Part shown: piece after piece, positions 2,499-26,448 of the stretch
How positions within the stretch are numbered: position 1 is the first letter of the stretch
Layout of the letters: the number at the start of each line of letters is the position of its first letter
Virus record (IMG/VR): IMGVR_UViG_3300030329_000227
Location: 1-26,448 of that record
Source of the DNA: a virus
Length of the DNA stretch: 26,448 nucleotides
Direction: 5' to 3' (one strand)
Position numbers and translations under genes: made by a program
Notes under the pieces: model-generated
The model's input: the letters and a program-made list of their open reading frames with translations, nothing else
The model's database searches: none
Told to the model about the DNA's origin: nothing

Positions 2499-2724
2499 TG
2501 TTTAAAGCTTTTAAAATTTTATTTTTTAGTTTAACGTCATCAATTATATCAAATGTTCTTTTTAATATAACATTTATAGAGTTTGTAATAATGTTCATAT
2601 AGTGTGGTTGTTCTGCTAAAAAGTATTCTTTTCCTTTTTCGTCTTTAAAAGATAAAACGCTGTCGGTTTTAAAATCCTCAGTTTTGCATTGCTTCAAAGC
2701 TCTTAGTATCCTAGTTTTTTTCAT
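2485..2724 (-). CDS. hypothetical protein
   Basis: A 79-aa ORF in the gene train with overlapping start and stop. No recognisable motif. Confidence 0.55.
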   Translation of the reverse strand: MKKTRILRALKQCKTEDFKTDSVLSFKDEKGKEYFLAEQPHYMNIITNSINVILKRTFDIIDDVKLKNKILKALNNDQK

Positions 2725-3224
2725 AGTTCATTAATTAAATAGTTCTTGACATTCTTAACTGCCTTATATATTGTAGCTCTTGATATTTTAGTTTCTTTAG
2801 CCATTTGATTAAGACTAAAACCCTCACGATAATATATTCTAAAAATTTCAGCATCAAACCAATATAAGTCTTTTAGTTTTTCCTCAATCCATTCTAACTT
2901 TTGTTCTACTTCTTTTTTGTCTTTTATAGTGTATTCTGTATTGTCAGCTGTGATACTTTCTATTGTAGTAGTAGTGTGATATTCATAATACTTTTTATAC
3001 TTATAGTAATACCTGCTAGTTTTACTATGATATTGATTAAGCATAATTCTAACAATGTAAAAAGTCATTTGACCTCTTTCTATTATTTCTCTTAATCTAA
3101 TCTGATCGCATTTATATATCTCTTCAATAACAAAACTTAACAAATCCTCACCTTTACCATTAGTTATATTATAAGATATATCTTTTAGTTTATCGTAATT
3201 ATCTGTTAAGTATTTGTCTAACAT
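2721..3224 (-). CDS. ECF-like RNA polymerase sigma factor (regions 2 and 4)
   Basis: The C-terminus DAEIFRIYYREGFSLNQMAKETKISRATIYKAVKNVKNYL is a sigma-70 region-4 HTH pattern. The N-terminal EDLLSFVIEEIYK...FYIVRIMLNQYHSKTSRYY is region-2-like. Confidence 0.7.
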   Translation of the reverse strand: MLDKYLTDNYDKLKDISYNITNGKGEDLLSFVIEEIYKCDQIRLREIIERGQMTFYIVRIMLNQYHSKTSRYYYKYKKYYEYHTTTTIESITADNTEYTIKDKKEVEQKLEWIEEKLKDLYWFDAEIFRIYYREGFSLNQMAKETKISRATIYKAVKNVKNYLINEL

Positions 3225-3499
3225 ACTTTGATTATAGAGGGTACTTTATACTGTTTACATAGGTTATACTCTGTGTGACTTAATCTATCTGTGTGTACTT
3301 CAGCTATATTACTGAATCTGTTATGTAGTTTTTTATAAATATAATTTAATATATTTTCGTTTTTTTTCAAATCTCGTAAAACAAAAGACAATGTAGCACC
3401 ACTTTCAAATAAAATTATAAACAAGTAATTGTTAGTATCAGTATAATTCCAATACAATCTTTCGTTTCTACTATTGAAAAATGTTCTTTTAACTATCAT
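3218..3499 (-). CDS. hypothetical protein
   Basis: A 93-aa ORF that is translationally coupled on both sides. Confidence 0.55.
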   Translation of the reverse strand: MIVKRTFFNSRNERLYWNYTDTNNYLFIILFESGATLSFVLRDLKKNENILNYIYKKLHNRFSNIAEVHTDRLSHTEYNLCKQYKVPSIIKVC

Positions 3500-5250: not shown

Positions 5251-5451
5251 CTAGTTATTTAATAATTCATTTATATTTAGATTAAGTATATTACATAATC
5301 TGTTTGCATCATTAATCTTTAACAATCCTGGATTGCTAAGATATTTAAGCATTGTTGGATATGACATGCCCATAATACATGATAATTCTTTTTTACTTAC
5401 CTTATTCTGGAACATGCTATATTCAATAGCCATTTTAAATTTTTCAATCAT
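5251..5451 (-). CDS. XRE/Cro-like HTH transcriptional regulator
   Basis: A 66-aa ORF. VSKKELSCIMGMSYPTMLKYLSNPG...DANRLCNILNLNINELL is an HTH_XRE-like pattern. It is the first gene of the minus-strand train at the divergent region. Confidence 0.7.
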   Translation of the reverse strand: MIEKFKMAIEYSMFQNKVSKKELSCIMGMSYPTMLKYLSNPGLLKINDANRLCNILNLNINELLNN

Positions 5452-5615
5452 AATTAATTATTTAAAATTATACACAATAATAATAAATCTTTTTTAATAC
5501 ACAATTAAATAAATTTAATACTTATTAACAATTCAAATGTTAATAACTAAAAACAAAACTTTACATTGTGTTAAAATTATTTTATATATATTTGTTCTAA
5601 CAAACAATTAAAACT
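5452..5615. promoter_or_regulatory. divergent AT-rich control region with three copies of ACACAAT (two direct, one inverted)
   Basis: ATACACAAT occurs at 5470-5478 and 5497-5505. The inverted ATTGTGT at 5565-5571 overlaps the -33 TTG of the plus-strand promoter. Confidence 0.6.
5566..5594 (+). promoter_or_regulatory. Bacteroidota-type promoter (-33 TTG / -7 TAnnTTTG) for the plus-strand module
   Basis: TTG at 5566-5568, an 18-nt spacer, then TATATTTG at 5587-5594, about 22 nt upstream of the ATG at 5616. This matches the published Bacteroidetes sigma-A consensus TAnnTTTG. Confidence 0.5.
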
Positions 5616-5825
5616 ATGACAAAATTATATTTAGAATCAGGCGAAAAGATAACATTAGAATTTTCACTTATAGAATCAAAAGTAAATACAGAAAAACGTA
5701 TTGAGTATTATACAGGTAAATTAAATAGCTCTAATAATACTGAAGATGTTAAACGATATACTGAATTACTAAAGATTCAAAAGAACAAACTACAATCAAT
5801 TACTAACCTATTAAATAAATTATAA
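5616..5825 (+). CDS. hypothetical small protein (69 aa)
   Basis: First ORF of the plus-strand module. Its stop overlaps the next start (TAATG). Confidence 0.55.
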   Translation: MTKLYLESGEKITLEFSLIESKVNTEKRIEYYTGKLNSSNNTEDVKRYTELLKIQKNKLQSITNLLNKL

Positions 5826-10135: not shown

Positions 10136-10684
10136 TTAAACAGTTACGATTTGATATGTTATATAAAAATCAGCACTAAATGTAGATGAGTAGTTACCAG
10201 CACTATAAACAAAAAAACCTCTATCTGTTAAACCTCCTGCACCACCTAGAGCAGAGGGAGTTTCATTTGCAGATGCAGCATAGTTTATATCAGCAGTTTT
10301 CCCCTGCATAAAACCTGTAATTCCCGCATAATATGCAGATGCAGTTGAAGTATCATAACCAAAATATAGTGTTACTTTTGCTGTTTGTGTACCTGAAGTA
10401 TAATCTACCATTAGACTTATACTTATTGGTTGTATAAAAAGACCTGCTCCTGGAGCTGCCACTAGCGTTGCAAATGTTCCTGCACCACCTGAACTATCCA
10501 TTGCTTGAAATATACCACTAGCTACACTTACTTTATCAGTTTGTATAACAAATTTGCTATCAACTTTTTTACTTGTACCTGCTGAACTCCCTGTTGTATC
10601 AGAGGTATCTACGACCATTAATTTATCATCACTAGCTAGATTGCTTGTTAATGCTGTCTTGTCGGTTAATCTTTGTCCTGCCAT
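10136..10684 (-). CDS. small tail fibre / receptor-binding-like protein
   Basis: The N-terminus LTDKTALTSNLASDDKLMVVDTSDTTGSSAGTSKKV resembles the conserved N-terminal anchor motif of many phage fibres and spikes. The remainder is Gly/Ser/Thr/Ala-rich. Confidence 0.45.
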   Translation of the reverse strand: MAGQRLTDKTALTSNLASDDKLMVVDTSDTTGSSAGTSKKVDSKFVIQTDKVSVASGIFQAMDSSGGAGTFATLVAAPGAGLFIQPISISLMVDYTSGTQTAKVTLYFGYDTSTASAYYAGITGFMQGKTADINYAASANETPSALGGAGGLTDRGFFVYSAGNYSSTFSADFYITYQIVTV

Positions 10685-14253: not shown

Positions 14254-14281
14254 TATAAATATAAATATAACATTATTGTTT
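14254..14281 (-). promoter_or_regulatory. conserved element AAAC-N12-TTTATATTTATA (copy 1), candidate phage late promoter
   Basis: Minus strand: AAAC (14281-14278), 12 nt, TTTATATTTATA (14265-14254), then 11 nt to the ATG at 14242. It lies immediately after the strong terminator. Confidence 0.5.
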
Positions 14282-14291
14282 TTAAGTGTAC

Positions 14292-14314
14292 AAAAAAAGG
14301 GGGCAAAAACCCCC
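14292..14314 (-). terminator. rho-independent terminator downstream of the capsid/tube genes
   Basis: Minus strand: GGGGG-TTTTTG-CCCCC followed by T7, 25 nt after the stop at 14339. The stem is all G:C in a very AT-rich genome. Confidence 0.75.
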
Positions 14315-14338
14315 TCTTTTATCTATTCTGAGTAACGA

Positions 14339-14932
14339 TTAAGAACCTGTTGTAATAGTTAAGTTCGCTTCATCAGCTAAACCATCAAATGGATACTTAG
14401 CTGTTGCTGCTCCTGCACTAGCAGGAAGCTGTATTAAAGCGTTGTTTTCCTCAGCACTCCATTCTATAGTGTATCCTGTCATATCACCTTTAGCTGTTCC
14501 TGTTACTACAGTACCACCTGAAACATGACATCCATTGTCAATACCTAATAAAAATACATTATCGTTAGTATCTTGTACAAAGATTTGACTTCTTGAATAT
14601 GCCATAAGTCTAAGCTCATTAGTCATGTCATGGTCAATTTTTTGTAGTGTTACAGATAATGCCTGAGTAAAAAATGTTGTACCATTAGCGTTATCTGAGT
14701 TGATAGTAACTGTCAAACTAGATAAGTTAGGTACTAAGTCATATTTGAAAACTGTAACAGTACCACCACAACAAGACCAATTAGCAAAACCTGCTGTAGT
14801 CATTTCAGTAGCATTTATAGTAGCAGTAGCACTAACATTATTACTGTAAGACTTAGCTATAAAAATTGCTTTTAATCCACCGATTTGGTCTTTACAATCT
14901 ATTAATCGTCCTCTTGTTATATCACAAGCCAT
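14339..14932 (-). CDS. putative major tail (tube) protein
   Basis: A 197-aa ORF after the capsid gene, flanked by terminator-like hairpins. MACDITRGRLIDCKDQIGGLKAIFIA... and ...GTAKGDMTGYTIEWSAEE resemble tail-tube families as I recall them. A head-decoration role is not excluded. Confidence 0.45.
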   Translation of the reverse strand: MACDITRGRLIDCKDQIGGLKAIFIAKSYSNNVSATATINATEMTTAGFANWSCCGGTVTVFKYDLVPNLSSLTVTINSDNANGTTFFTQALSVTLQKIDHDMTNELRLMAYSRSQIFVQDTNDNVFLLGIDNGCHVSGGTVVTGTAKGDMTGYTIEWSAEENNALIQLPASAGAATAKYPFDGLADEANLTITTGS

Positions 14933-14956
14933 AATTATTATTTTATTAAAAGTTAA

Positions 14957-14983
14957 TAAAAGGGGAGTATATTACAACTCCCC
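14957..14983 (-). terminator. hairpin plus U-tract between the capsid and tube genes (attenuator/partial terminator)
   Basis: Minus strand: GGGGAGT-(8 nt)-ACTCCCC (14983-14962) followed by TTTTATT, located 15 nt after the capsid stop codon. Confidence 0.55.
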
Positions 14984-14997
14984 ATTTAAAGTATCTA

Positions 14998-15984
14998 TTA
15001 AGTCCAAACAGTTGAACCATATACACCATCAGTAGCTACAGCAGTTTGTACTCCAATAGCAAAGTTCATAACAACTCTTACGTTGTCAGAACCATCATAT
15101 TCGTATGTAGGTATTAATCTTGCTTCTGTCCAATCAGTAGCTAAGTTAGTACCAAATACTAAGTTTTCAGGGTAAGTGAAAAGAATAGTATCATTGAACA
15201 TACCAGGACATCTGTATATTGGGTATCCAAAGTAAGTAGCTGTATCAGATTTTGCATCAAATCCTAATCCTGAAATTTGACCTTGATTAGAACCTGCTGA
15301 AGCTAATGCTTGAATGTAAAAACCATAAGTTTTGTTATTCATGTAAAAACCTACACCTGGTTTTGTAAGGATTCCTGATATATCAGAAGCAGCAGCATTA
15401 TATACTGAAGCCATGTCAGTAAGTATATCAGAAGCAGCTAAAGCATCAGCGAAATCAACTTCAGTAAAGTCTTTACACGCAGAAGCGTCAGCACCTGCCT
15501 CATCTTGAGTACCATCATCAGATAAGAAGCCTGTTCCGAATGGAGCAGCACCTTGCCAAATACCGATCTCTAATTGAGCAGCAGCTTTTCCTGCAACAAC
15601 TTGTAATAAGAAGTCACCGAATGCTTGTGGTAAGTTACCATTTCTATCCATTCCTTGTCCCATCCATGTAGGAAAGATTGTACCTCTACAAATCTCTTCG
15701 TTTACTTTAAGATCAGTAAGCGTTAAAACTTGCTCAGTAGTTGATGTGTCATTCCCACTTGAGAATGAACAAGCAGAAGCAACAATAGGATTAGCACAAG
15801 CTATATTATTGATTACTGCACTTTTTGTTAGACCATCTAAGATTCTAACATAACCTTTTGCAACTGTATCTGGACTTCTCAAGGCAGCAGTCACATAAGG
15901 CATTGCGTGAACACCTGCGTATGTATCACCATTCACAGTTATATCAAATTCACGTCTTTTTGATAATTGAATTTTGTTTGCCAT
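14998..15984 (-). CDS. major capsid protein (inferred)
   Basis: A 328-aa ORF directly downstream of the protease and acidic scaffold genes. Locally higher GC, with a hairpin terminator after it. The call is from synteny and size, not a recognised motif. Confidence 0.65.
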   Translation of the reverse strand: MANKIQLSKRREFDITVNGDTYAGVHAMPYVTAALRSPDTVAKGYVRILDGLTKSAVINNIACANPIVASACSFSSGNDTSTTEQVLTLTDLKVNEEICRGTIFPTWMGQGMDRNGNLPQAFGDFLLQVVAGKAAAQLEIGIWQGAAPFGTGFLSDDGTQDEAGADASACKDFTEVDFADALAASDILTDMASVYNAAASDISGILTKPGVGFYMNNKTYGFYIQALASAGSNQGQISGLGFDAKSDTATYFGYPIYRCPGMFNDTILFTYPENLVFGTNLATDWTEARLIPTYEYDGSDNVRVVMNFAIGVQTAVATDGVYGSTVWT

Positions 15985-15991
15985 TTTAAAT

Positions 15992-16663
15992 TTATTTTAA
16001 GTTATTAATGTAATATGCTGTCCGTTCTTGCATAGACAGTTTCGCTAAGTCAACAGTTGAATTAAAATTAGAACCTTCAGGATTGTATTCAATACCTTCC
16101 GTTGCAGGTTCGCCACTCAATTCTACTATTTTGCTTTTAAGCTCTTCTATTTGTGTCATAAGATCACCTATAACTTCATTAGACATTTCAGTTTTATCTT
16201 CTTTAACTTCATCAGATAATTCCTCAACTTCCTCTTCAGCTACTTCAGATGATGCCTCTACTTTATCAGCTTTAAGATCAGCAACAGCATCTTCTAAATT
16301 TTTGATTCTTATTTCCATACCTTTCCAATCTGCTACATCTGCCTCTTCTGCTAGTTCCTCTTCTTTAACTTCAGATGCTTCTACATCTTCAGCTTCCTTC
16401 TCTTCGCCTAAGTCTAAGATTTCAGATGAATCACCGATTGTCATTTTGTTGCCATTTTCCATAGTGTAGCTTCCTGCTTCTAGCATTTCAGCTTCACCAT
16501 CATCACCAACAGCAAATACTTTAGATCCAATCATGAACTGCTCATCTTCTGTAGCAATAACACGACCATCATCTAATTTCATTTCAGCGTATAGTTCTAC
16601 GCTTTCTGATTTTGATTCGTTTTTCATTTTAATTAGATTTAAGATTTTTTCTAGTGTTCCCAT
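15992..16663 (-). CDS. scaffolding protein (acidic, helical)
   Basis: A 223-aa ORF extremely rich in Glu/Asp/Ala with coiled-coil-like repeats (EEELAEEADVADWK..., EVAEEEVEELSDEVKEDK), located between the protease and capsid genes. Confidence 0.65.
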   Translation of the reverse strand: MGTLEKILNLIKMKNESKSESVELYAEMKLDDGRVIATEDEQFMIGSKVFAVGDDGEAEMLEAGSYTMENGNKMTIGDSSEILDLGEEKEAEDVEASEVKEEELAEEADVADWKGMEIRIKNLEDAVADLKADKVEASSEVAEEEVEELSDEVKEDKTEMSNEVIGDLMTQIEELKSKIVELSGEPATEGIEYNPEGSNFNSTVDLAKLSMQERTAYYINNLK

Positions 16664-16669
16664 AACATG

Positions 16670-16697
16670 TATAAATATAAATTGATTATTATTGTTT
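16670..16697 (-). promoter_or_regulatory. conserved element AAAC-N12-TTTATATTTATA (copy 2)
   Basis: Minus strand: GTAAAC AATAATAATCAA TTTATATTTATA, then 6 nt to the scaffold ATG (16663). Confidence 0.5.
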
Positions 16698-16703
16698 ACT
16701 TCT

Positions 16704-17702
16704 TTAGTATTTTACAGTTCTATTTTTGATAGCAGAACATACTTTAGCAGCAGTTTCTTTATTGCCATATTGTTTAATTTGATCCCTCATGCAATCATCC
16801 CAAGAATACTTTAACATTGCTTTTCTTTTTGCATAAGCAACGTATTCAAGCATCTTATACCTTTTTTTGTATTTACGCTTTCCTTTCTTAGTATATAGCT
16901 CCTCTTTCATTGTAGCTGATGAGTGATCTGCACAAGGCATATATAGTTTTTCACCATCTACTGTGTGTGGATGTGATCCTTCACAACCTTTAAACATCTC
17001 TGCGTATATTTCAGCTTCCTCTCTAGTTCTAAATAAAGGCTCACCATCTAAAGCTCCTACAGGATTTAATTCATTCTCTAAAATGATGTTTTTAATTTTA
17101 CCTAGCATAATGTCATCAGGACAATCTTCACACACCTCATCTAGTATATCTTTATTCCTAGATGCTTCTATTAGTTTATCTGTAAAGTAACCTTCTATAC
17201 TAAAACCTCTAACTTCTTTATTCTTAATCTTTTCCCAAATCTCAGGATTGTTTTCTGCACTTACTTGTACAAACCAAGTACCAACAGGCATATTCTTAAA
17301 TCCATACATATTAGATTTATCAAATTTTTCATCTTCTTTAATCCACGATTCTACAACAGTTAAACCCTTTATTGGCTCTTTGTGTTCAAGAGTGTGGTTA
17401 TTGTTGTTTAAACTTGACATAAATAGGCTCTGTGCCTGTTTAATAGTTTCTTTAGTAAAGAATACATCATACTCTTCGTTAGTATCTTTATCTAGTCTAG
17501 GTATACGTTTTTCAGGAATAAGAACAGCACCAATTAATTGCTTTTGCTCTTCATCTATTTTTGCTAGACTCAGAAAGTCCTGATTAAAGAACACAAAGTT
17601 TTCCTCTATTGCAGGAAATTTGACTACGCTGATTGCGTCAACGCCAAAGAAATCTGCTGTTTCATCTATGATTAACTCTATTAGTTTTCGTTTTTTATCC
17701 AT
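16704..17702 (-). CDS. prohead protease, XkdF-like (Peptidase_S78_2-type) with a C-terminal Cys/His-rich extension
   Basis: VSVVKFPAIEENFVFF...LIGAVLIPEKRI...VFFTKETIKQAQSLFM...HTLEHK...VVESWI...GTWFVQVSAENNPEIWEKIKNKEVRGFSIEGYF follows the XkdF pattern. The C-terminus YSWDDCMRDQIKQYGNKETAAKVCSAIKNR is also common in such proteins. Confidence 0.7.
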   Translation of the reverse strand: MDKKRKLIELIIDETADFFGVDAISVVKFPAIEENFVFFNQDFLSLAKIDEEQKQLIGAVLIPEKRIPRLDKDTNEEYDVFFTKETIKQAQSLFMSSLNNNNHTLEHKEPIKGLTVVESWIKEDEKFDKSNMYGFKNMPVGTWFVQVSAENNPEIWEKIKNKEVRGFSIEGYFTDKLIEASRNKDILDEVCEDCPDDIMLGKIKNIILENELNPVGALDGEPLFRTREEAEIYAEMFKGCEGSHPHTVDGEKLYMPCADHSSATMKEELYTKKGKRKYKKRYKMLEYVAYAKRKAMLKYSWDDCMRDQIKQYGNKETAAKVCSAIKNRTVKY

Positions 17703-17708
17703 AATACT

Positions 17709-17736
17709 TATAAATATAAAGTTGTTAATTTTGTTT
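17709..17736 (-). promoter_or_regulatory. conserved element AAAC-N12-TTTATATTTATA (copy 3)
   Basis: Minus strand: GTAAAC AAAATTAACAAC TTTATATTTATA, then 6 nt to the protease ATG (17702). The TAA inside GTAAAC is the stop of the upstream gene. Confidence 0.5.
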
Positions 17737-19321
17737 ACAATGTAGCCTGTATTTCTAATTCATCCTGTAATGCCTGAGCATCTGAAATATCTGTTTCAAC
17801 AACAAATGCCTGTACAGGTGTCATGTCGGTTTCAGGTGTAGTAATAGCACTGATATTAGGAATTGTTCCACCAATACCTCCCATAGCAGGTGTACTAGCT
17901 ACTGCACCTACATCACCACCACCACCATCTGCTCCTGCTTTTTTAAGTATGTTCTTTGCTGAAGCTAGATTAGTCATAACTGCTGCAATACCTGTACCAA
18001 TCGCTGCTAAGTTACCAGGAAACGGAACAGCTTGAGCTGCTTTTACTGCACCTGAGATAGCTAGTGCAGTATCAATTAATATATTTGTTAAAGCTGCTGC
18101 CTTACCCACTTTTGTGCCTTCACCTGCTAATTTAGTTGTTGCTGTTAATACAGCTTTAGCTGCTTTTATTCTTTCATCTCTAATCCTGTTTCCATCTTCA
18201 ATCTCTTGCTGAGCATCATCTTCTTTTTGCTTTGCTAGTTCTTTTTCTAAATCTGCTTGTTCTTTAATTAAAGCATTTTCATTAGTTAACTGCTCTGATC
18301 TTTGACTTGTAATTCTTTCATCTAAGTCAGCTAATTCAGTTCTAGCTTCTATTAAAGCAACCTGTAGGTCTATATTAGATTTATCGGTAGCTAATTCTTT
18401 TTGTGCTAATTCTAGTCGTGTTAAAGCAACTTTTCTTTCTGCTTCTGCTTGTTCATCTAAGATTTCACCTAGTTTATTATTGGCAGCAATTCTTTCCTCT
18501 GTTGTTAAACTAACATCATCTCTAATTTGTCTTTGTAATTCCGCTTCTTTTTGAAAAGTTAACTGCAATTCTCTTTGTACAGCATCTGCTAATTTAACAT
18601 CATTTCTAAGTTGTACTATTGCTTGTGAAGTCGCTAATATAGCTCCTGCTCCCTGTTCAAAGTTTTTAGTAACACGAGTAGCATATTCACCAGAGGCAAC
18701 AACTGCTATCTTTGTTCCTTCTACTACATTAGTTGCTAGACCACCAAAAGCATTTGCTGTTTCACCAACTAACTCAATCATTTCATCTTTATTTTGATTC
18801 ATTGCTTCTGTTAACCTTTCAAATTCACCTTCTGTACCCATTCCAATCAAATCTAAAAAACCTGCATAAGTTGCTTGAAGTCCTAATAAGTTACCTTCTA
18901 GCATTTTTAAAGGAATAGCAAAATTGTTCTTTATAAGAACTGCCATATTACTAAAAGCATCTGCCATTACCCTTAATACATCTGTGTTTTCAGTTAGCCA
19001 ATATGCTGTGTCTACTAAAGGCTCTACAAGTTGTTTAAAGGTTATATTTAAAAACTCTAATCCTGTATTAAATTGATCTGCAAATTTTTGATTATTTAAA
19101 AAAGCGTTTCCAAGACCTACTAAAGCTGAAATAACCAAACCAATACCTGCTGATTTTAATGCTAATCCTAATCCTTTTACTGCAAGTGTCATTCCAACAG
19201 TAGAATCTGTGCCCTGTTTTGCTGATTCCTCTATGCCATCAAAACCTGCTTTTACCTCATCTAATCTTTGTACTGAGCTTCCTGTATCTACTTGTACTTT
19301 TACTGTTTTTGTTACCGCCAT
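17735..19321 (-). CDS. tape-measure-like protein (coiled coil with Gly-rich hydrophobic segments)
   Basis: A 528-aa ORF. It has hydrophobic/Gly-zipper stretches (GLGLALKSAGIGLVISALVGLGNAF; AIGTGIAAVMTNLASA), a long heptad-rich Glu/Leu/Ala/Gln centre, and a GADGGGGD tail. An internal/ejection protein is an alternative. Confidence 0.45.
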   Translation of the reverse strand: MAVTKTVKVQVDTGSSVQRLDEVKAGFDGIEESAKQGTDSTVGMTLAVKGLGLALKSAGIGLVISALVGLGNAFLNNQKFADQFNTGLEFLNITFKQLVEPLVDTAYWLTENTDVLRVMADAFSNMAVLIKNNFAIPLKMLEGNLLGLQATYAGFLDLIGMGTEGEFERLTEAMNQNKDEMIELVGETANAFGGLATNVVEGTKIAVVASGEYATRVTKNFEQGAGAILATSQAIVQLRNDVKLADAVQRELQLTFQKEAELQRQIRDDVSLTTEERIAANNKLGEILDEQAEAERKVALTRLELAQKELATDKSNIDLQVALIEARTELADLDERITSQRSEQLTNENALIKEQADLEKELAKQKEDDAQQEIEDGNRIRDERIKAAKAVLTATTKLAGEGTKVGKAAALTNILIDTALAISGAVKAAQAVPFPGNLAAIGTGIAAVMTNLASAKNILKKAGADGGGGDVGAVASTPAMGGIGGTIPNISAITTPETDMTPVQAFVVETDISDAQALQDELEIQATL

Positions 19322-19485
19322 ATTAATCGTATTATTTGTTTAAACATTCGTCTAAAGCTAGAGTGATATTCCTCTATGCCATAAACAAAGTCATAATGTT
19401 TATCTTTATATTCTACTAACTGAATATGCTCTACACTTAGAGGTATCAGTTTTGCTGTATGTTCTATATATTTTTTTAATTCCAT
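19312..19485 (-). CDS. small ORF (57 aa), below the track cutoff
   Basis: MELKKYIEHTAKLIPLSVEHIQLVEYKDKHYDFVYGIEEYHSSFRRMFKQIIRLIWR. It fills the 154-nt gap. Its start overlaps the end of the 1157-aa gene by 10 nt and its stop overlaps the next ATG by 10 nt. Confidence 0.5.
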   Translation of the reverse strand: MELKKYIEHTAKLIPLSVEHIQLVEYKDKHYDFVYGIEEYHSSFRRMFKQIIRLIWR

Positions 19486-22400
19486 ATTAAGTAATCTCCG
19501 TTTTGTAATTGTATTTTATCTCCGTTTTGATATAACGCCCAATTTTCATCATAACCTAAAGACATATTATTAATTTTATTTATATCAATATCTGCTGATA
19601 ATTGCCATACTCTTTTAGTATCTGTTTGGCTATCTTCTAATCCAAATCTAAGCACATTACTAGAAATGTCTATATCTAGTGTGCAAGTTGTTGGATTTGA
19701 TCCTTCTCTTATACTAAATTCCTGTTGACCACCTGCTGTGCTTAATTGTGTTGCTGTGCCATTAGCTATTTTAAAAGCTGTGTAATAAGCAAAACCCTCA
19801 GTAGTACCCAAAGTGTATGTAGCACTTGTACCACCCACTACAGTAGCAATACCTTTAACTCTAATAATCATATTTATATTATCAGGCACTGCCATTGACT
19901 TGCCATACTCATCTGCTTCAGGATACGCATAACCTTTAGTGTTTCCAGATGTGTTTCCTGATAATACTATTCTATGGGATTCTCCTTGTAATTGTGGTAT
20001 ATCTCGCTTTGCTGTAGCGTATTTAATAATTATATCATCACCAAATAAAGGAAACAAAGATTGACTATATTTAGTGTTATTAACACCTCTTACAAAGGGT
20101 TTATTACGCCCTCCTATTTTATCATATATTAGTGTTTTTAAATCTCCTGTATTAAGTATATTGCTAGATGAAAAAATACTCTTAAATTTTAAAGGCAAAC
20201 TACCTGCATTAGCAATACAAGGGTACAGGTTCTTATCAGCTTGTGCTGTGTAATTCCACATCACCATACCACCATTACAAATGCAACATTCTGGAGGAGC
20301 AAAAATACCTAAAAAATTAGGTGCTGTAGTATCAGGAGTGCATCCAGGATCGTTATCTGCACACCACATATAATAAGTATCTGCATATAAGTTACTATCA
20401 CCAACACTAGCTGTAACATAATCACAACCATTACAATTTTCTTTAGTATCTAAAGATTTTATTAATGTTACTTTTGTACTTGCATTAGCACCTACTTGAT
20501 AGTTAGAGATTTCTAGTATACGCCAATATGTGTCTTTTATAAATATCTCATCAGCAAAGCTAAAATTAAATATATCTACTTCATTTAAATTTAGATAACA
20601 CTCCATGATTCTAGCTTCTGTGCTATATATATTATCAAGATACTGTTTCCAATAACCACCATATAAAGTGTTATTAAACCAATTACCAAAATAGTTAGTA
20701 TAGTTGAATATAGAGAGGTTTCCAACTAAAGGAGGTGTAGCATTCCAATATAAAGATTTTGAACTAGTAGTTAATCCTGTAGTATTATATTCTAAGTCCC
20801 AAGCTGTACAGATAGGATATTTTGTAAATGTATAAGCTGTTAAAGCTGTAGATGTTGCTCTATGTAGATAGTAATTTATATTATCACCTATAGTATTTAA
20901 AACATCTGTTGCTGTACCACCATAATAAAATAATTTAGGATTTGTCTTTTTAATTTTATTGACATTTATGCCATTATTTTCCTCATAACTAAATTCATAT
21001 TGAACTGCCATATTTGGTAAAAATGTACCAAATTGCTCATCATCATTTGCAAAGACTTGACCACTTATATATGGTGAAAATATAGCATTGTTTTTTAACT
21101 CACCTGTTGCAAACTCATTATTAAACTCATCTATAGTTAGATGTCCATATACATTTATATCAGGATAGCGTTCTTTAAATGATTTATTGTACAAATCTAC
21201 ATCCTCTTTATCTGTTAAGTGTATTCTCTTTTTTTGTAATGTGGTTGTGTCTTTGACTATGATTTCTTTTGAAGTGTCTATTTTATTTGTCCAATACTTT
21301 AATTCACCACTAGCAATAAAGTCATCGTAAGGTTCTATGATTAAGTTAGTATCATCATTAGGATCAGTTAAAACAACTAAGTTAAAACGCTGTATTATAT
21401 CTTTTAAAAAATCTCTTTGCTTTATTTCAGGATCAATACAGGCAGGTATATCTACAGTAGCACCAAAAATATCATTAGAATATCCAATCCAATTAGAACT
21501 AATACTGCTAAACTGAGAACATCCAATGGTTGCATTACCTAAAACATAAGTAGCAGCTAACCCAGAGCTGTTTATTAGTGTACCTGAATCTATAATTATT
21601 TGAGCAGAAGCTCCTAAAGGCATATTTTCTAAAGACAATGTATAGTTTAAGATTTCATCTACTGTAGATTGATTTGCAGGAGTAGAATCAGGATCAGCTA
21701 CAGGATCAAGAGTTATTGTTGTACTTGCATATTCAACGCCTGTAGATAAATTATTTGTTGCATCCCATTGAACCAAAGAAATAGTTAATTCAATGTTACC
21801 ACCAAAATTACAACCTAAAACATTAATAGAATTAAATCTATGTGAAGCATTTACCTCTTCCATTGTAGTGGATACTTTAGTAAAGTAATTATAAGTTGCA
21901 TTCCAAACATTATCAGGATCAGCAGGTGTAGTGCAAGTTGCTGATATTGGAGATTCTGCATTAGCAGGTACAACAACTTGACTAACTGTACCACAAGATG
22001 CACCTATTTCACTTGATAAAACACCCCATTGAGCATTATTACCTACTGACAGTAAACCACTAGGAGATGCGTTGGTGTTTGTTGTTGGTATTGCACCTGC
22101 TTCTATATGAGTGCAGGTGGTCATAAATAATTGACCAAAATACGCATTAGAAGCATCTATAAAATTAGATGTATAAGAAAATCCTGCTTTAGCACAAATT
22201 TTATTAAATAACATTTTTAATTGTAGTGCAGGTCTAAATTGATTTATGTTAACACCATAGCTATAGGCAGTTTCTACTCCCTGTGCAGTTACTATAGAAT
22301 TTGCTGTTGTTTGGTCTAAATTAAGGTATCTAGCTTCATTAGGATCATAATAAAACTTTTCCTCAGTTACCGCCATTGGATATACCACTTTAGAAACACC

Positions 22401-22949
22401 TGCTGTTGAATCATTTAAAGATGTGCCACCTGTATTAGTTAAAGTGCCACTCCATGAATTATATAATGTGTTATTAGTTGAGTTTGTATAAAAAAAAGTG
22501 TGGTTAAAATCTGTACTGTAACTGCCATCATCCTCTTTAAATACATCTTTTAATCTTTGTTCTCCTATTGTGCTAAATAAAGAAGCTGAACTAGACATTA
22601 AGACTACTTCATACATTTGTGCTTTTTTATATACTGATTTTAATTGTAAAGCACCTTCAAATTGTGGTACTGTTCCAACATATAATACAGCATCAAATTT
22701 TTTCCTAGAGCTAAAAACTAAAGTGTCTAAATTGACATTATACCAATCTTGAAAAAATTGATTATTATTATCAGTAAATGGTAATTTAAATGTTTGTGAA
22801 TAACTTCCTTTTCTGGTTTCAGGTTCTTTTATTTCTGAGAACGCATAGTTTATAGAAACATTAGGAGCTTCTTGTAAGTCTAAATTATAAGCTGTAGTAG
22901 ATGATGCACCACTTGTAGCTTTACGATATGCAACTAATCTAACATTCAT
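19476..22949 (-). CDS. large tail/baseplate protein (probable tip or receptor-binding protein)
   Basis: A 1157-aa ORF, the largest in the genome. The N-terminus (YNLDLQEAPNVSINYAFSEIKEPETRKGSYSQTFKLPFTDNNNQFF...) resembles the phage distal-tail/tip N-terminal pattern. The composition is Asn/Thr/Ser/Tyr-rich. Confidence 0.55.
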   Translation of the reverse strand: MNVRLVAYRKATSGASSTTAYNLDLQEAPNVSINYAFSEIKEPETRKGSYSQTFKLPFTDNNNQFFQDWYNVNLDTLVFSSRKKFDAVLYVGTVPQFEGALQLKSVYKKAQMYEVVLMSSSASLFSTIGEQRLKDVFKEDDGSYSTDFNHTFFYTNSTNNTLYNSWSGTLTNTGGTSLNDSTAGVSKVVYPMAVTEEKFYYDPNEARYLNLDQTTANSIVTAQGVETAYSYGVNINQFRPALQLKMLFNKICAKAGFSYTSNFIDASNAYFGQLFMTTCTHIEAGAIPTTNTNASPSGLLSVGNNAQWGVLSSEIGASCGTVSQVVVPANAESPISATCTTPADPDNVWNATYNYFTKVSTTMEEVNASHRFNSINVLGCNFGGNIELTISLVQWDATNNLSTGVEYASTTITLDPVADPDSTPANQSTVDEILNYTLSLENMPLGASAQIIIDSGTLINSSGLAATYVLGNATIGCSQFSSISSNWIGYSNDIFGATVDIPACIDPEIKQRDFLKDIIQRFNLVVLTDPNDDTNLIIEPYDDFIASGELKYWTNKIDTSKEIIVKDTTTLQKKRIHLTDKEDVDLYNKSFKERYPDINVYGHLTIDEFNNEFATGELKNNAIFSPYISGQVFANDDEQFGTFLPNMAVQYEFSYEENNGINVNKIKKTNPKLFYYGGTATDVLNTIGDNINYYLHRATSTALTAYTFTKYPICTAWDLEYNTTGLTTSSKSLYWNATPPLVGNLSIFNYTNYFGNWFNNTLYGGYWKQYLDNIYSTEARIMECYLNLNEVDIFNFSFADEIFIKDTYWRILEISNYQVGANASTKVTLIKSLDTKENCNGCDYVTASVGDSNLYADTYYMWCADNDPGCTPDTTAPNFLGIFAPPECCICNGGMVMWNYTAQADKNLYPCIANAGSLPLKFKSIFSSSNILNTGDLKTLIYDKIGGRNKPFVRGVNNTKYSQSLFPLFGDDIIIKYATAKRDIPQLQGESHRIVLSGNTSGNTKGYAYPEADEYGKSMAVPDNINMIIRVKGIATVVGGTSATYTLGTTEGFAYYTAFKIANGTATQLSTAGGQQEFSIREGSNPTTCTLDIDISSNVLRFGLEDSQTDTKRVWQLSADIDINKINNMSLGYDENWALYQNGDKIQLQNGDYLIWN

Positions 22950-24409
22950 TATGAATTTGTATTTATAGGATTTGCGTATTCTATATTAATAGTATATTGT
23001 ATTAAGTTGTCATTAGCCACAGTCTTTTTAACAAAACTAGAATCTGTAATTATTACACCCTCTGTAAAATCTGTATCTGCATTTTCAACAATTTGAGCAT
23101 CTGTTGACATTAATAGCTTTTCAATTAATACTCCTTGTGCTTCTGTAATCCAATCTGTATTTAATGTTTCTTTTAATGTAGCTGTTGTTTGTCTAGTTGT
23201 TTTGCCTCTTTGAGTATTATTGTATCTCCATCTACTTTTATTAAATGTTCCTAGCATTGAGCTATAATTATCTCTTTTGATTTCTGTTGTTTGTGTAGAT
23301 TTCTTTTTAAAGTTAAAATAGTCATAACCACCCACAGAATTACGCCACGCTAAACGCCTCACTTTAAATCCTTTACAGCTACCATCTTCTTTTATAAAGT
23401 AATATGTTGCTGTCTTATAAGCAATAGTACCTGAATCATTGCCTGTGCCTCTTATAGTATAATACGCCCACCCTGAATTACCTGAAGGTCTTGCAGCTGT
23501 TTCATCACTTTGTGCTTCTAAGTTACCTGCACCACAACCAAAATATAATAATCTACTAGCATCAGCTAGTGAGCCATCATTAGGTGGTAAACCACCATTA
23601 GCTGAGATATTATCTATATAGTATTTACTGTTTATAAGTGATCCTGCTGAATTGTAATAAGCAATTTCAATATGGTCAATATCACTAGCAAAATTTGTAA
23701 AATCATTTAAGAAAGCTACAGTATGATAATCTGTGTCTTGTATATAGTTAATATAACCGCTTAAATTATATTCACCTGAATCAGTTTGTAAATCACTTAA
23801 AAATTTATCTGTAGCACTTGAACCATTATATACCTTAAAAGCATCAGATTGCACATAATCTGCACTAGAACTCCTTGCTGTCATTAAAGGCAATGAAGCC
23901 TCTAAATAATGCAAAGTGTCATTAACACTAGGAGTTTCATCTTCAGCAGGTATTGCTCCTGCTGTTGAACTATATTCTTGATATGCTTTTACAAAAATAG
24001 TTTGTATTTGTGTGCCATCAGTTGTATTATCACCATTAAGACTAAATGGTTTTGCTGCTGTATTTACACCTACTTTATGTATTGTTCTAAATGGTTGACC
24101 TGTATCGTTTTGGTCAAATACTGTAGGTGTTAAAACACTATTAACAATATCTCTTAAATCAAAATATGCTCTAGCTTTATTTGTGTTTACATCTACGCTG
24201 TAGCCATTTCTACGTTGTTTAATCTTTCCAATTAATGTGCCTGAAGCATCATCTAATCTAACCTCTAAAATAAGTTTAAAATAAAACAAACCACTTATAT
24301 CGTCTTGATAAACCATATAACCAATTAAAGGTGTCCAATTAGTTATGACAGGTGCTTTTGATGTTGTGTTTATTGGTTCTTGTACAAATGATATGTTTCC
24401 TAATGCCAT
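22949..24409 (-). CDS. virion structural protein (tail-associated, function unknown)
   Basis: A 486-aa ORF coupled by a 1-nt overlap to the 1157-aa gene. Confidence 0.55.
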   Translation of the reverse strand: MALGNISFVQEPINTTSKAPVITNWTPLIGYMVYQDDISGLFYFKLILEVRLDDASGTLIGKIKQRRNGYSVDVNTNKARAYFDLRDIVNSVLTPTVFDQNDTGQPFRTIHKVGVNTAAKPFSLNGDNTTDGTQIQTIFVKAYQEYSSTAGAIPAEDETPSVNDTLHYLEASLPLMTARSSSADYVQSDAFKVYNGSSATDKFLSDLQTDSGEYNLSGYINYIQDTDYHTVAFLNDFTNFASDIDHIEIAYYNSAGSLINSKYYIDNISANGGLPPNDGSLADASRLLYFGCGAGNLEAQSDETAARPSGNSGWAYYTIRGTGNDSGTIAYKTATYYFIKEDGSCKGFKVRRLAWRNSVGGYDYFNFKKKSTQTTEIKRDNYSSMLGTFNKSRWRYNNTQRGKTTRQTTATLKETLNTDWITEAQGVLIEKLLMSTDAQIVENADTDFTEGVIITDSSFVKKTVANDNLIQYTINIEYANPINTNS

Positions 24410-24434
24410 TTTGTTATTTTTTTATATTTTATTG

Positions 24435-24995
24435 TTATATTAAATTCATGTCTTTTAAATCACTATCTAAGTGTCTTTCTATATCATCTGCAAATGCTCT
24501 AGTAATTACATCCTCGTCTATCTCTTGCTCATAAGGTCTACTAAAAAACTGAGTTCTTTCTAATCCTCTTTGTGCTATTGCCCTACCTATTACAAATGAA
24601 GCACTATCTATATTTGCTTTTGTTTTAGCTAAGAATTTGCCATCAACACCTCTTAGCCTTAAAGGTTTATTTTGAATCCATTTAGCAACAACTCCTTTCT
24701 TAATGTTTTGCTTTTTAAACTTAAATGGACTTCCTTTACCTCTAGCACGTCCACTACCTTTAAAACCTCCTGATCCTCTTACTCCTTCATCTACAAATTG
24801 CCAATACTTTTTAGCTTTACCAAACACAAATTCTAACGTAACACCTCTAGCATCTTTTTTTACATTGTAATTAAATCCTTTATATAGACCTTTGCTTTTA
24901 GTTAATTTCTTTTTTCTTTTAAGGATTCTCTTTCCTTTACGGACTACATCAAAACCCATACTTTGCATTGCTTGTATTGTTCTAGGAAAATCCAT
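24435..24995 (-). CDS. HK97 gp10-like neck/tail-completion protein (basic)
   Basis: LEFVFGKAKKYWQFVDEGVRGSGG... resembles the gp10-family YA-x-x-VE-x-G core. The protein is very Lys/Arg/Gly-rich. Confidence 0.4.
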   Translation of the reverse strand: MDFPRTIQAMQSMGFDVVRKGKRILKRKKKLTKSKGLYKGFNYNVKKDARGVTLEFVFGKAKKYWQFVDEGVRGSGGFKGSGRARGKGSPFKFKKQNIKKGVVAKWIQNKPLRLRGVDGKFLAKTKANIDSASFVIGRAIAQRGLERTQFFSRPYEQEIDEDVITRAFADDIERHLDSDLKDMNLI

Positions 24996-25486
24996 TAGCT
25001 ATTAGGGTCTACAGGTACTATACAAAGGTTATTAGGGTTGTTAACATCAACGCTTATTGTTGCTGACCACCCTGTCAAGATATTATCAAAACGTGCTGTA
25101 AATGGCTCTGCTGATATAGGAAGCTCTAACACCACTTCACCATCCACCCAAGATGTAGAGTATAAAGCGTGTTTAAATTCATTTATAACATCATGCAGTA
25201 TTTGTAGATTCTCAGAATATGTATCTACACGCGCTAATCTTTGCTTATTAGGTGCATCACCTACTTCATCATTAACCATGTCTAAGACATATAGTGTAAA
25301 AGAATAGGTCATCACTCCTGAATCAATAGTTACTTCTCCTGGCTCTGCATATAGTATAACATAGTCAGTAGCACCAAGTTTATTTATATCTACTTCATCA
25401 AGTTCACCACTATGAAAGCTGTTTATCATATAATGTTTATCTGCAATGGTTTCTAAATAACCTACTACGTTTCTAAAAGTTATCAT
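24995..25486 (-). CDS. virion structural protein (unknown role)
   Basis: A 163-aa ORF coupled to both neighbours. Confidence 0.55.
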   Translation of the reverse strand: MITFRNVVGYLETIADKHYMINSFHSGELDEVDINKLGATDYVILYAEPGEVTIDSGVMTYSFTLYVLDMVNDEVGDAPNKQRLARVDTYSENLQILHDVINEFKHALYSTSWVDGEVVLELPISAEPFTARFDNILTGWSATISVDVNNPNNLCIVPVDPNS

Positions 25487-26221
25487 AATTGTTTCTTTGT
25501 TTATTGCTGTAATCCTGTTTAAAAGATAAAAATGTTAATACCTCCATTACAGGCAATTCTGTTATTTTATTTATATTAAGTATGTTATCACCACACAAAG
25601 CATATAAAGTATTATACCACCCCCACTTGCTAGTCATTGTTACGCTTTTGGTTGTTTCTTTTCCTGTGCTTTCAAATAGCTGTGCGAACTGTGTGCTAAT
25701 TGTTCGCCTAAAGTCAAAAAAAAACCTAAGCAACATAAAGCTATATCCATTGGACAATCCTTAAATAAGTCCTCTTTAAACTCAGCAGGATCATAATTTT
25801 CAATAGCATATTTATTGCCACTTTTATTTGTTATTTTCCTATATAGTATTGACATAATAATATGCAAGTTCTTTATAGGTTCTTTGCAATACTCTTCAAG
25901 GTCTATATATTCACCTGTAGTTAGTTTGCTCAAATTAGGTATAAACCCATACTCTTCATTGTTAAACACAAAACGCTTTCTAAATTTAGTTTTATCTGGT
26001 TCTGTGTCAATCATCTTTTTAAGTATATTAAGAATATCTAGCATATCTGTATACTGCATCTTCTTAATTATCTCAGGACTTTCATTGCATAATAAAGATA
26101 ATATCTTTACTGTTTTGGTTTTTGTCCTTGCTTTACCTTCCTGTATTTCTACATATTTCTGATATGTTCCTATTGTTATATCACACCATTCAGAAGGTAT
26201 CCGTAGTTTAACCTCTTTCAT
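25473..26221 (-). CDS. predicted -1 frameshift fusion product (about 249 aa: residues 1-168 of the 193-aa ORF joined to the last 81 residues of the 94-aa ORF)
   Basis: The 94-aa ORF (25473..25757) is in the -1 frame relative to 25640..26221 (start offset 464 nt = 2 mod 3). The shared run GGT TTT TTT TTG gives the junction ...CCLGFF/FDFRRTIS.... Confidence 0.55.
25640..26221 (-). CDS. tail assembly chaperone-like protein (zero-frame product, 193 aa)
   Basis: The first gene after TerL. Its 3' end carries a U9 slippery run and overlaps a -1 frame ORF by 118 nt. The overall pattern (...TTGEYIDLEEY...ENYDP...CCLGFF) resembles siphophage chaperones as I recall them. Confidence 0.55.
   Translation of the reverse strand: MKEVKLRIPSEWCDITIGTYQKYVEIQEGKARTKTKTVKILSLLCNESPEIIKKMQYTDMLDILNILKKMIDTEPDKTKFRKRFVFNNEEYGFIPNLSKLTTGEYIDLEEYCKEPIKNLHIIMSILYRKITNKSGNKYAIENYDPAEFKEDLFKDCPMDIALCCLGFFLTLGEQLAHSSHSYLKAQEKKQPKA
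25684..25724 (-). promoter_or_regulatory. -1 programmed ribosomal frameshift signal: U9 slippery run plus downstream stem-loop
   Basis: An A9 run on the plus strand at 25716-25724 (U UUU UUU in the zero frame), an 8-nt spacer, then GCGAAC-(12 nt)-GTTCGC (25707-25684 on the minus strand). Confidence 0.55.
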
Positions 26222-26225
26222 TACA

Positions 26226-26253
26226 TATAAATATAAAAGTTTATAATTCGTTT
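26226..26253 (-). promoter_or_regulatory. conserved element AAAC-N12-TTTATATTTATA (copy 4)
   Basis: Minus strand: AAAAAC GAATTATAAACT TTTATATTTATA, then 4 nt to the ATG at 26221. It sits in the 36-nt gap after the TerL stop. Confidence 0.5.
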
Positions 26254-26257
26254 TTTA

Positions 26258-26448
26258 TTACAATATATAGTATTTACCACTATGATTTATAGATAGTTTA
26301 TTTAAACATAGATACCGCGTTGCGTCAATTAGATGGTCATTTACTTTAACAGGAGTATTTAAAACATCACCATTTTTATCAGTTGCCCATTTATAACCTC
26401 TAAATTCTTTTATTGCATTTAAACTATCTTTTGTTATGTTAAGTTTAT
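26258..26448 (-). CDS. terL: terminase large subunit, 3' portion (26382..26448 duplicates 1..67); stop TAA at 26260..26258
   Basis: Continuation of the frame reads ...EFRGYKWATDKNGDVLNTPVKVNDHLIDATRYLCLNKLSINHSGKYYIL*. DHLIDATRY is the typical C-terminal nuclease motif of PBSX/Terminase_3-like TerL. 1034 + 124 nt = 386 codons exactly. Confidence 0.85.
   Translation of the reverse strand, partial: KLNITKDSLNAIKEFRGYKWATDKNGDVLNTPVKVNDHLIDATRYLCLNKLSINHSGKYYIL
26382..26448. repeat. terminal direct repeat, copy 2 (identical to 1..67)
   Basis: Exact 67-nt identity with the window start, read directly from the sequence. Confidence 0.95.

Follow-up and report, generated by a model that had tools for sequence, protein, structure and literature searches.

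A conserved two-box element at four operon starts of a small marine phage genome: candidate late promoters for a phage-encoded ECF-like sigma factor

The stretch of viral DNA analyzed here (IMG/VR record IMGVR_UViG_3300030329_000227, positions 1 to 26,448) has a length of 26,448 nucleotides (nt) and is referred to as the window. It carries, on its minus strand and close upstream of four start codons, four copies of one bipartite element that consists of an AAAC box and the A/T-only 12-mer TTTATATTTATA. The question raised by these copies is what reads them: a phage-encoded factor, the transcription machinery of the host, the ribosome or a DNA-binding regulator. We found that the elements are best explained as late promoters read by a phage-encoded sigma factor resembling those of the extracytoplasmic function (ECF) type, and we assign this reading a probability of roughly 0.74.

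A two-box element at four operon starts

The 12-mer TTTATATTTATA was found at 14254-14265, 16670-16681, 17709-17720 and 26226-26237, always on the minus strand, which are the same four places as those given in a preliminary description of this DNA. As that description had also claimed, each copy is preceded by AAAC at a fixed distance of 12 nt, and both pattern matching and reading of the sequence confirmed that the upstream hexamers are AAAAAC in two copies and GTAAAC in the other two. The combined pattern AAAC-N12-TTTATATTTATA occurred without mismatch only at these four places; the next-best matches had one or two mismatches and were located on the plus strand inside coding sequence. Since the two ends of the window (1-67 and 26382-26448) are identical over 67 nt, the window represents a closed circular genome of 26,381 bp with the TerL gene spanning the junction, and the four strong copies are therefore the count for the whole genome.

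We designated the four copies PL1 to PL4 and scored them with a 29-nt weight matrix built from the orthologous sites of relatives. PL1 (26226..26255, minus strand) reads AAAAAC-GA-N10-TTTATATTTATA, scored 31.8 bits and precedes the ATG, at 26221, of a gene encoding a protein of 193 amino acids (aa); it occupies the 36-nt gap that separates this ATG from the TerL stop codon. The 193-aa protein had been called chaperone-like, which we found to be unsupported, as its only match was to a PHROG of unknown function. PL2 (17709..17738, minus strand; GTAAAC-AA-N10-TTTATATTTATA; 33.4 bits) precedes the ATG of the prohead protease gene at 17702, and the protease label was upheld by a Peptidase_S78_2 match with an E-value of 3e-17. 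PL3 (16670..16699, minus strand; GTAAAC-AA-N10-TTTATATTTATA; 29.0 bits) precedes the ATG of a putative scaffold gene at 16663, a label that is plausible from the position of the gene only. PL4 (14254..14283, minus strand; AAAAAC-AA-N10-TTTATATTTATA; 26.0 bits) lies directly after an intrinsic terminator and precedes the ATG, at 14242, of a 57-aa open reading frame (ORF) that leads into the portal, tail and lysis genes. The gaps between the 12-mer and the ATG were 11, 6, 6 and 4 nt for PL4, PL3, PL2 and PL1, respectively, in agreement with the earlier range of 4-11 nt.

The genome has a G+C content of 31% and the 12-mer is composed of A and T only, which could suggest a chance or low-complexity repeat. 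In dinucleotide-preserving shuffles, TTTATATTTATA was present at a mean of 0.10 copies and none of the 100 shuffles reached four, which confirmed the earlier, rougher estimate; moreover, strand and position are conserved across approximately 250 copies in relatives, as described below. A chance or low-complexity origin is thus refuted. The matrix also separated the sites: the four elements scored 26-33 bits and the next-best site on either strand scored 8.4 bits. A weak plus-strand match to the motif (8.4 bits) was observed at 19381-19409, in the overlap of a 57-aa and the 1157-aa gene; six relatives have it too, with scores of 14-20 bits. It runs antisense to the genes and probably arises as a coding by-product.

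The cytosine of the AAC, which is the most informative position of the element, is 17 nt from an ATTTA core in the downstream box. This placement, with AAC in the -35 region and the core approximately 17 nt downstream, bears out the ECF-like geometry that had been proposed (PMC5758882). The downstream box also contains TATATTTA, which equals the host -7 element TAnnTTTG with the final G replaced by A, and the conserved AAAC box lies 15 nt ahead of TATATTTA. None of the four elements matched in a scan for TTG-N17-21-TAnnTTTG, whose only matches were the 5566-5594 site and two sites inside genes. The earlier statement that the element is unlike a host-type promoter therefore stands in part: the -33 TTG is absent and the G-5 position is A, whereas TATATTTA is only one base away from the host -7 element. 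The fold z-scores of the four sites ranged from -1.0 to +1.1 and gave no indication of secondary structure, and an Rfam scan of the window revealed no match at the gathering score.

A T4-type reading was also considered. The late promoter of T4, TATAAATA, has no -35 element, is read by gp55 and needs the sliding clamp and gp33; it resembles the present element in being an A/T-only word with a sigma-like phage reader. TATAAATA is present on the plus strand at all four sites, where it points away from every gene, and we rejected it as a coincidence.

Conservation in relatives and in a cultured outgroup

The relatives that we compared comprised 80 IMG/VR contigs (964 kb) with proteases 83-96% identical to that of the window. 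The exact 12-mer was found in 107 copies on the gene strand and in 4 copies on the other strand. A scan with the weight matrix revealed approximately 247 gene-strand sites, all at the four orthologous positions, together with 6 weak reverse-strand matches that all fell at one coding spot. The spacing between the boxes was invariant in the four window sites and in these orthologous sites. Among 162 distinct sites, the majority base reached a frequency of 0.95 in AAACAA, 0.52 in the 10-nt spacer, 0.99 in TTTATATTTAT and 0.50-0.58 in the flanks; the value for TTTATATTTAT is partly due to construction, because the anchoring pattern itself fixed 9 of its 11 positions. Alignments anchored on the ATG, in which the motif was not used, gave the same picture, with two blocks conserved at 90% or more, TAAACAA and TTTATATTTAT, and variable sequence between them; such alignments showed no comparable upstream block at the capsid, 197-aa, 528-aa, 486-aa and portal genes. 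The AAC cytosine was conserved in 155 of the 162 sites, and distant relatives carried GAAC or AAAC. At the positions that correspond to the host -7 element, the G-5 equivalent was A in 162/162 sites and the T-7 equivalent was A in 13/162.

Each site was retained in its own context. The PL1 ortholog was present in 35/35 relatives whatever gene precedes it, either TerL or another gene whose coding end supplies the AAAAC, and it is also kept in relatives with a sigma-like protein only 34-49% identical to that of the window. PL2 was found in 79 of the 80 relatives, with a distance from matrix window to ATG of 7 nt in 76 and 4 nt in 3. PL3 was found in 69 relatives and in 9 more at contig ends, and its downstream box reads TATATATAT in some of them. 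PL4, present in 54/57 relatives, always follows a GC hairpin and T-run. In the window, this hairpin is the intrinsic terminator at 14295..14320 (minus strand), directly upstream of PL4, and its stem is maintained in relatives through compensatory changes. The retention of PL1 behind a different upstream gene and the position of PL4 after a conserved terminator tie the element to transcription of the gene downstream of it.

The motif was also nearly unchanged in the relatives with 34-49% sigma identity (L200, L201, L202, L277 and L278), where the only differences were TAC for TAT or one extra spacer base. Relatives with a higher G+C content (42-57%; L203-L205 and L262-L273), which are few and represented by partial genomes, showed no TTATAT-type motif and no clear peak in the histogram of AAC-to-ATG distances. 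When the exact bipartite pattern was searched in viral contigs, the matches listed were a mixture of family members and single chance matches in giant-virus contigs, and a distant-locus query with P0124 gave no match in viral contigs.

The outgroup was the cultured Nonlabens phage P12024L (NC_018272.1; L285), which was located via its capsid protein and whose sigma was then recognized from annotation and hhalign. Its gene order (VRR-NUC gp34, gp35, small ORFs, TerL gp39) is the same as in the window. The gp35 protein is annotated with Sigma-70 region 2 and aligned with the window sigma family over 133 columns (hhalign, E = 5e-5, probability 68%); it is a remote homologue at the same genome position. 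We found seven plus-strand sites of the form AAAACAA-N10/11-TTT(C)CGTTAATA-N4/5-ATG in this phage, at 147, 2999, 5380, 22059, 24740, 25979 and 27580, upstream of gp01, gp05, gp08, gp37, gp42, gp45 and gp46, respectively; no description of these sites was found in the literature searched. The upstream box is identical to that of the window, while the downstream box is a different one, a classical ECF box with CGT at the same distance (AAC-N17-CGT). P12024L and the window clade provide the sole case of covariation between sigma lineage and -10 box that we obtained.

The interval between the AAC cytosine and the A of the ATG was also constrained. This distance is 29 nt at PL1 (29 in 29/29 close relatives), 31 nt at PL2 (31 in 43/44), 31 nt at PL3 (mostly 31 in close relatives) and 36 nt at PL4 (mostly 35), and it holds although the bases between box and ATG vary. 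In P12024L, it was 29-30 nt in 7/7 sites. For the gene following TerL, the 5-nt gap between box and ATG persists down to 34% sigma identity. The annotated ATGs are the real starts: another in-frame Met follows only at residue 55, 95 or 13, or not at all. In ECF geometry, as known from sigmaE, the AAC cytosine lies near -31. Either this geometry or the host rule, by which transcription starts 4-5 nt after the -7 element (PMC6847099), predicts that the start for PL1-PL3 falls between approximately 4 nt upstream of the ATG and its A; for PL4, the predicted leader is roughly 5-9 nt. The fixed promoter-to-ATG distance in the window and in P12024L indirectly supports the earlier suggestion of nearly leaderless mRNAs, and we put the chance that the late mRNAs are truly leaderless or near-leaderless at even or slightly above.

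The sigma-like protein and the competing explanations

The proposed reader of the elements is a 167-aa protein encoded at 2721..3224 on the minus strand, for which a sigma-like nature had been suggested and is now supported by profile, homologue and fold matches. The protein matched TIGR02937 (sigma70-ECF) over its full length with an E-value of 1e-6. Its family contains 594 representatives at the 50% identity level; among 51 diverse members, Sigma70_r4_2 was matched by 14 and Sigma70_r2 by 4, and the label given to relatives by the Joint Genome Institute (JGI) is 'sigma24 family'. An AlphaFold model based on a 51-sequence alignment, with a predicted local distance difference test (pLDDT) value of 91.9, revealed two helical domains with a disordered linker between them. 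In Foldseek, the top matches over the full length of this model were all ECF sigma factors, namely SigL, SigE and SigK from M. tuberculosis, sigmaE from E. coli, SigW and AlgU. Upon superposition, the C-terminal domain overlaid on region 4 of sigmaE bound to -35 DNA (2h27) with a template modeling (TM) score of 0.72, and the TM score with SigD region 4 was 0.78. As evident from the model and the profile matches, the 167-aa protein is a divergent two-domain sigma factor of the ECF type. The position of its gene is constant down to 31% identity, after the VRR-NUC or NinG gene and before the TerS/TerL genes, and the sigma protein of one clade member is present on 20 contigs in Tara and other marine assemblies. 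A tblastn search with the sigma against 50,697 phage records returned no match. We also considered a phage-encoded RNA polymerase of the T7-like or crAss-like kind as the reader and set it aside, as none is encoded as far as sequence methods show: no ORF tested had a Pfam, PHROG or PDB-sequence match to an RNA polymerase, and the largest protein (1157 aa) contains no DxDxD motif.

Two unlike boxes at a fixed distance across a variable spacer, on one strand and at operon starts only, are characteristic of promoters recognized by two-domain sigma factors, and the promoter-like nature proposed earlier is thus supported. We infer the following course of infection. Host RNA polymerase would first transcribe the early operon, including the sigma gene, from host-type promoters, and the phage sigma would then join the host core polymerase. 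Its C-terminal sigma4 domain would read AAAC(A/G)A, and its N-terminal sigma2 domain would read and melt TTTATATTTAT, with the ATTTA core approximately 17 nt after the AAC. Transcription would begin at the ATG or a few bases upstream, so that the first gene of each late unit would be carried on a leaderless or nearly leaderless mRNA; this mode of translation would suit the host, in which Shine-Dalgarno sequences are not used. The PL1 unit would extend from the 193-aa gene through the gene for the 528-aa virion protein, the PL2 unit would contain the protease gene, and the PL3 unit would contain the scaffold and capsid genes and end at a terminator. The PL4 unit would restart transcription after the terminator and cover the portal, tail and lysis genes. 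With G-5 changed to A, T-7 changed in some sites and the -33 TTG missing, the sites fail the definition of a host sigmaA promoter even though they are one base away from it, and this near-host -7 box would keep them silent early in infection.

Positive feedback and late expression of the packaging genes would probably come from a weaker copy ahead of the sigma gene. This candidate fifth promoter (3334..3362, minus strand) reads AAAC-GA-N11-ATTATATTTATA, with one extra spacer base and A for the first T; the site begins ATTATATTTAT. The near match does exist where it had been described, and its 3' end is 109 nt upstream of the sigma ATG, against the stated figure of about 110 nt; the correction needed is that it is embedded in the coding sequence of a 93-aa ORF, where it encodes ...KKN-ENIL-NYIYK..., and that its AAC is lost in some relatives. 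An equivalent is present at the same position in relatives with 48-100% sigma identity. The AAC was kept in 19 of the 28 distinct sequences, and GAC, GAT or AAT was present in the other 9. The Asn codon was AAC in 19 and AAT in 3, while AAC accounts for 29% of Asn codons in the genome; the Ile codon was ATT in 26/28, while genome ATT usage is 37% of Ile codons. These counts are inflated by relatedness among the sequences. Neighboring codons vary synonymously, and the bias of synonymous sites toward the motif suggests that the near match is functional despite the loss of AAC in some relatives.

Copies near the sigma gene were also found elsewhere in the family. L200 (10260-10288), L201 (10260-10288) and L202 (approximately 10258-10291), with sigmas 41-49% identical to that of the window, carry a full copy inside the sigma ORF, at the inter-domain linker, which may serve as an internal promoter, either of the packaging genes downstream or of a product with sigma4 only. 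L277 contains a clear intergenic copy upstream of the sigma operon, and P12024L has a copy just after the sigma gene, upstream of gp37. We slightly favor the view that 3334-3362 is a weaker sigma-dependent promoter that provides feedback and late packaging-gene expression; in that role, it may serve the sigma, HNH, ParB, TerS and TerL genes as an autoregulatory late promoter.

The elements might instead be promoters read by a host sigma factor, either sigmaA with the crippled -7 element TATATTTA and a phage activator bound at AAAC near -30, comparable to MotA/AsiA of T4, or a host ECF sigma. The early promoter of the phage itself has TATATTTG, and AAC-type -35 boxes are common to many ECF sigmas, those of hosts included (PMC5758882). 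However, the host G-5 is nearly invariant (PMC6847099) and yet is replaced by A in every distinct site, with T-7 also replaced in 13, and the TTG at -33 is absent from the four elements. Among the proteins of the phage, the sole candidate for an activator is the two-domain, sigma-shaped protein itself, and the downstream box of P12024L, CGTTA, is unlike any sigmaA -7 element and differs from the window box in a phage whose sigma differs too. We therefore consider a host reader unlikely.

Two further explanations do not involve a sigma factor, and we regard both as very improbable. Every strong copy ends 4-11 nt before an ATG, and the host phylum, in which Shine-Dalgarno sequences are lacking, depends on unstructured leaders rich in A and U (PMC6847099), so the elements could act in the mRNA as a start-codon-associated A/U-rich translation enhancer or as a ribosome-loading site that replaces the Shine-Dalgarno sequence. 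However, a ribosome signal would have no need of an AAAC box at least 25 nt upstream at a fixed distance over a variable spacer, and the element is missing from operon-internal genes with high expression, of which the capsid gene is one. Copies are also present far from start codons, namely in L277, with a 37-nt leader, inside the sigma ORF of L200-L202 and at the -137 site of the window, and the four sites showed neither RNA structure nor, as part of the window, an Rfam match. The other explanation is that the elements are operators for a phage or host DNA-binding regulator that overlap promoters defined by other sequences, as they are short conserved words beside gene starts and the phage encodes a Cro-like helix-turn-helix protein. 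In contrast to typical operators of dimers, the boxes are neither inverted nor direct repeats, and such dissimilar, non-repeat boxes fit a two-domain reader rather than a dimeric regulator; furthermore, the 32-40-nt intergenic gaps hold no other conserved sequence that could be a promoter.

Several points weigh against promoters read by the phage sigma. TATATTTA matches the Bacteroidota -7 element TAnnTTTG except at the last position, which leaves host sigmaA together with an activator its share of the probability. The TIGR02937 score of the 167-aa protein is below the curated cut-off (28.3 vs 42.9 bits), and the Foldseek E-values are weak (in the ranges 0.01-0.1 and 0.06 to about 1), yet no other fold competes. 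Inside the clade, sigma identity falls to approximately 34% with hardly any change in the motif, so that covariation of sigma and motif depends on the single outgroup P12024L, whose host also differs. The longer PL4 distance of 35-36 nt means that strictly leaderless mRNAs cannot apply to all of the units, and leaders as short as those predicted would be unusual for the phylum, because 87% of mRNA leaders in F. johnsoniae are longer than 10 nt, with a mean of 33 nt (PMC6847099).

Genome context, known systems and significance

Nearly all genes of the window are on the minus strand. In minus-strand reading, an early block with the Cro-like gene and a divergent early control region near 5450-5620 is followed by a block with the replication initiator, the VRR-NUC resolvase, the 93-aa ORF and the 167-aa sigma-like protein (3224-2721), and then by small ORFs and the HNH, ParB-like, TerS and TerL genes. 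The PL1 block contains the 193-aa gene and other ORFs and then the genes for the 486-aa, 1157-aa and 528-aa proteins; the interval from TerL to the protease gene comprises eight ORFs, including those of the 486-aa and 1157-aa proteins, which have no family match. The PL2 block contains the S78 prohead protease gene, and the PL3 block consists of the putative scaffold and major capsid genes and an intrinsic terminator after the capsid gene (14962..14983, minus strand) at the end of the PL3 unit; the 197-aa gene and the second terminator come next. The 197-aa gene, 3' of the capsid gene, is thus flanked by both terminators, 14962-14983 and 14295-14320. The PL4 block contains the 57-aa ORF, the portal gene (720 aa, PF04860), tail genes, and the endolysin and holin genes. 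The portal gene (11343-13505, minus strand) is located downstream of the protease, scaffold and capsid genes and does not adjoin the terminase genes.

The divergent early control region (5451-5616) contains a consensus host-type promoter of the Bacteroidota sigmaA kind at 5566..5594 on the plus strand (TTG-N18-TATATTTG; consensus according to PMC6847099), which faces plus-strand small ORFs, and a near-consensus TTG-N19-TATTATTG, which faces the Cro-like gene. This layout resembles a lysis-lysogeny or early switch, and no integrase was noticed in the window. A standard sigma70 promoter scan gave 61 matches compared with 67.5 in shuffled sequence; this lack of excess is expected for a Bacteroidota host.

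A Shine-Dalgarno-like 4-mer was found upstream of only 3 of 34 genes, and the nearest cultured phages by capsid protein were the Nonlabens (Persicivirga) phages P12024L and P12024S. Together with the Bacteroidota-type early promoter, these results point to a host among the marine Flavobacteriia. A DNA search for close cultured relatives yielded only an 80-nt match, to Cellulophaga phiST-like phages. Based on capsid similarity and on a gene order shared with the Persicivirga phages that define the group, this genome is probably a member of 'group 1', a set of putative Flavobacteriaceae phages in Nishimura et al. 2017 (PMC5332604), who reported 147 Tara genomes in the group containing the Persicivirga phages.

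The relatives carry differing DNA-modification genes near the sigma/packaging region, which include Mom, Dam, Tet_JBP with ADDT, TAGT, and a 2OG-oxygenase with a glucosyltransferase; these loci are at 9094-9729 in L081, 8245-9381 in L200, 11833-13444 in L201, 11570-12442 in L204 and 16409-18674 in L285. This pattern suggests that DNA hypermodification varies across the clade, and none of these genes is present in the window itself.

Comparison with known systems revealed that the closest experimentally proven analogue is Salmonella phage 7-11, in which eight bipartite late promoters (GTAAtg-N16-aCTA) are read by the host core polymerase with the phage sigma gp47, as was experimentally validated (PMC8948821). 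Phage 7-11, as well as phiEco32 with its gp36 promoters, resembles the window in its small divergent phage sigma, its few near-identical bipartite late promoters, its fixed spacer and its re-use of the host core. In contrast, the host phylum and the sequences differ, the sigmas have no detectable similarity, and the window promoters are predicted ones. Transcription starts in 7-11 precede ordinary leaders, whereas the ATG in the window is fixed at 29-31 nt from the -35 cytosine at three of the four sites.

Bacterial ECF promoters have AAC in the -35 box, a group-specific -10 box, a spacer optimum of 14-17 bp and close adherence to the consensus, and most of their sigmas are autoregulated (PMC5758882). 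Among them, those of group 4, for example the promoters of sigmaW in B. subtilis (TGAAAC-N16-CGTA) and of sigmaE in E. coli (PMC5758882), resemble the window elements in the AAC -35 box, the short fixed spacer and the consensus adherence and in a sigma with domains 2 and 4 only; a candidate autoregulatory copy would be a further likeness. The -10 box of P12024L has the classical ECF CGT, while the window box (ATTTA, in TTTATATTTAT) is A/T-only, with neither C nor G; this absence of CGT in the window clade need not be disqualifying, because -10 boxes are group-specific. Unlike in bacterial ECF systems, no anti-sigma factor is evident, the proposed regulon consists of viral late genes, and the promoters abut start codons.

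The housekeeping promoter of the Bacteroidota is composed of -33 TTTG and -7 TAnnTTTG, with T-12 A-11 H H T-8 T-7 T-6 G-5 (PMC6847099). The A/T-rich context is common to both, and TATATTTA is the same as the -7 element save for the final G. The differences are that G-5 is always A, that T-7 can be A, and that an AAAC box approximately 4-5 bp closer takes the place of the -33 TTG; host mRNA leaders, which average 33 nt, are also unlike the short leaders predicted for the window. The element further recalls the start-associated sequences (SAS) of Cluster K mycobacteriophages, contiguous 13-mers with a Shine-Dalgarno-like core that are thought to act in translation. In both cases, some of the phage genes carry a conserved word a few bases ahead of their start codons. 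In contrast to SAS, the window element is bipartite and lacks a Shine-Dalgarno core; it marks the starts of operons, and some of its copies are distant from start codons.

The literature that we searched contained no account of this motif, nor of the promoters of these phages. The principle of a phage sigma cascade is known, and the present case would be conceptually another one that leaves the paradigm unchanged. What sets it apart is a -10 box of A and T only that differs from the host -7 element by one base, a fixed coupling of start codons to the promoter, and conservation across a very abundant, mostly uncultured clade of ocean phages. The leaderless coupling is the part that could be a new variant, if start sites confirm it. 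As a tentative generalization, to which we give somewhat less than even odds, all late operons of this globally abundant marine Flavobacteriia phage clade, comprising the 'group 1' environmental viral genomes and the cultured Persicivirga (Nonlabens) phages, would be leaderless. The sigma promoter would be fused to the start codon at 29-31 nt so that the transcription start defines the translation start, as a viral answer to a host without Shine-Dalgarno sequences, and the A/T-only -10 box would keep the promoters silent until the sigma appears. P12024L on Nonlabens offers a cultured system in which leaderless late expression in such a phylum is directly testable. If the phage sigma reading is true, the pair of sigma and promoter would also be an orthogonal one for genetic tools in the Bacteroidota, whose promoters and translation signals are unusual. 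For a large clade of ocean Flavobacteriia phages, most of them uncultured, it would supply the first consensus promoter and the first account of regulatory logic, and their late operons could then be annotated from sequence alone.

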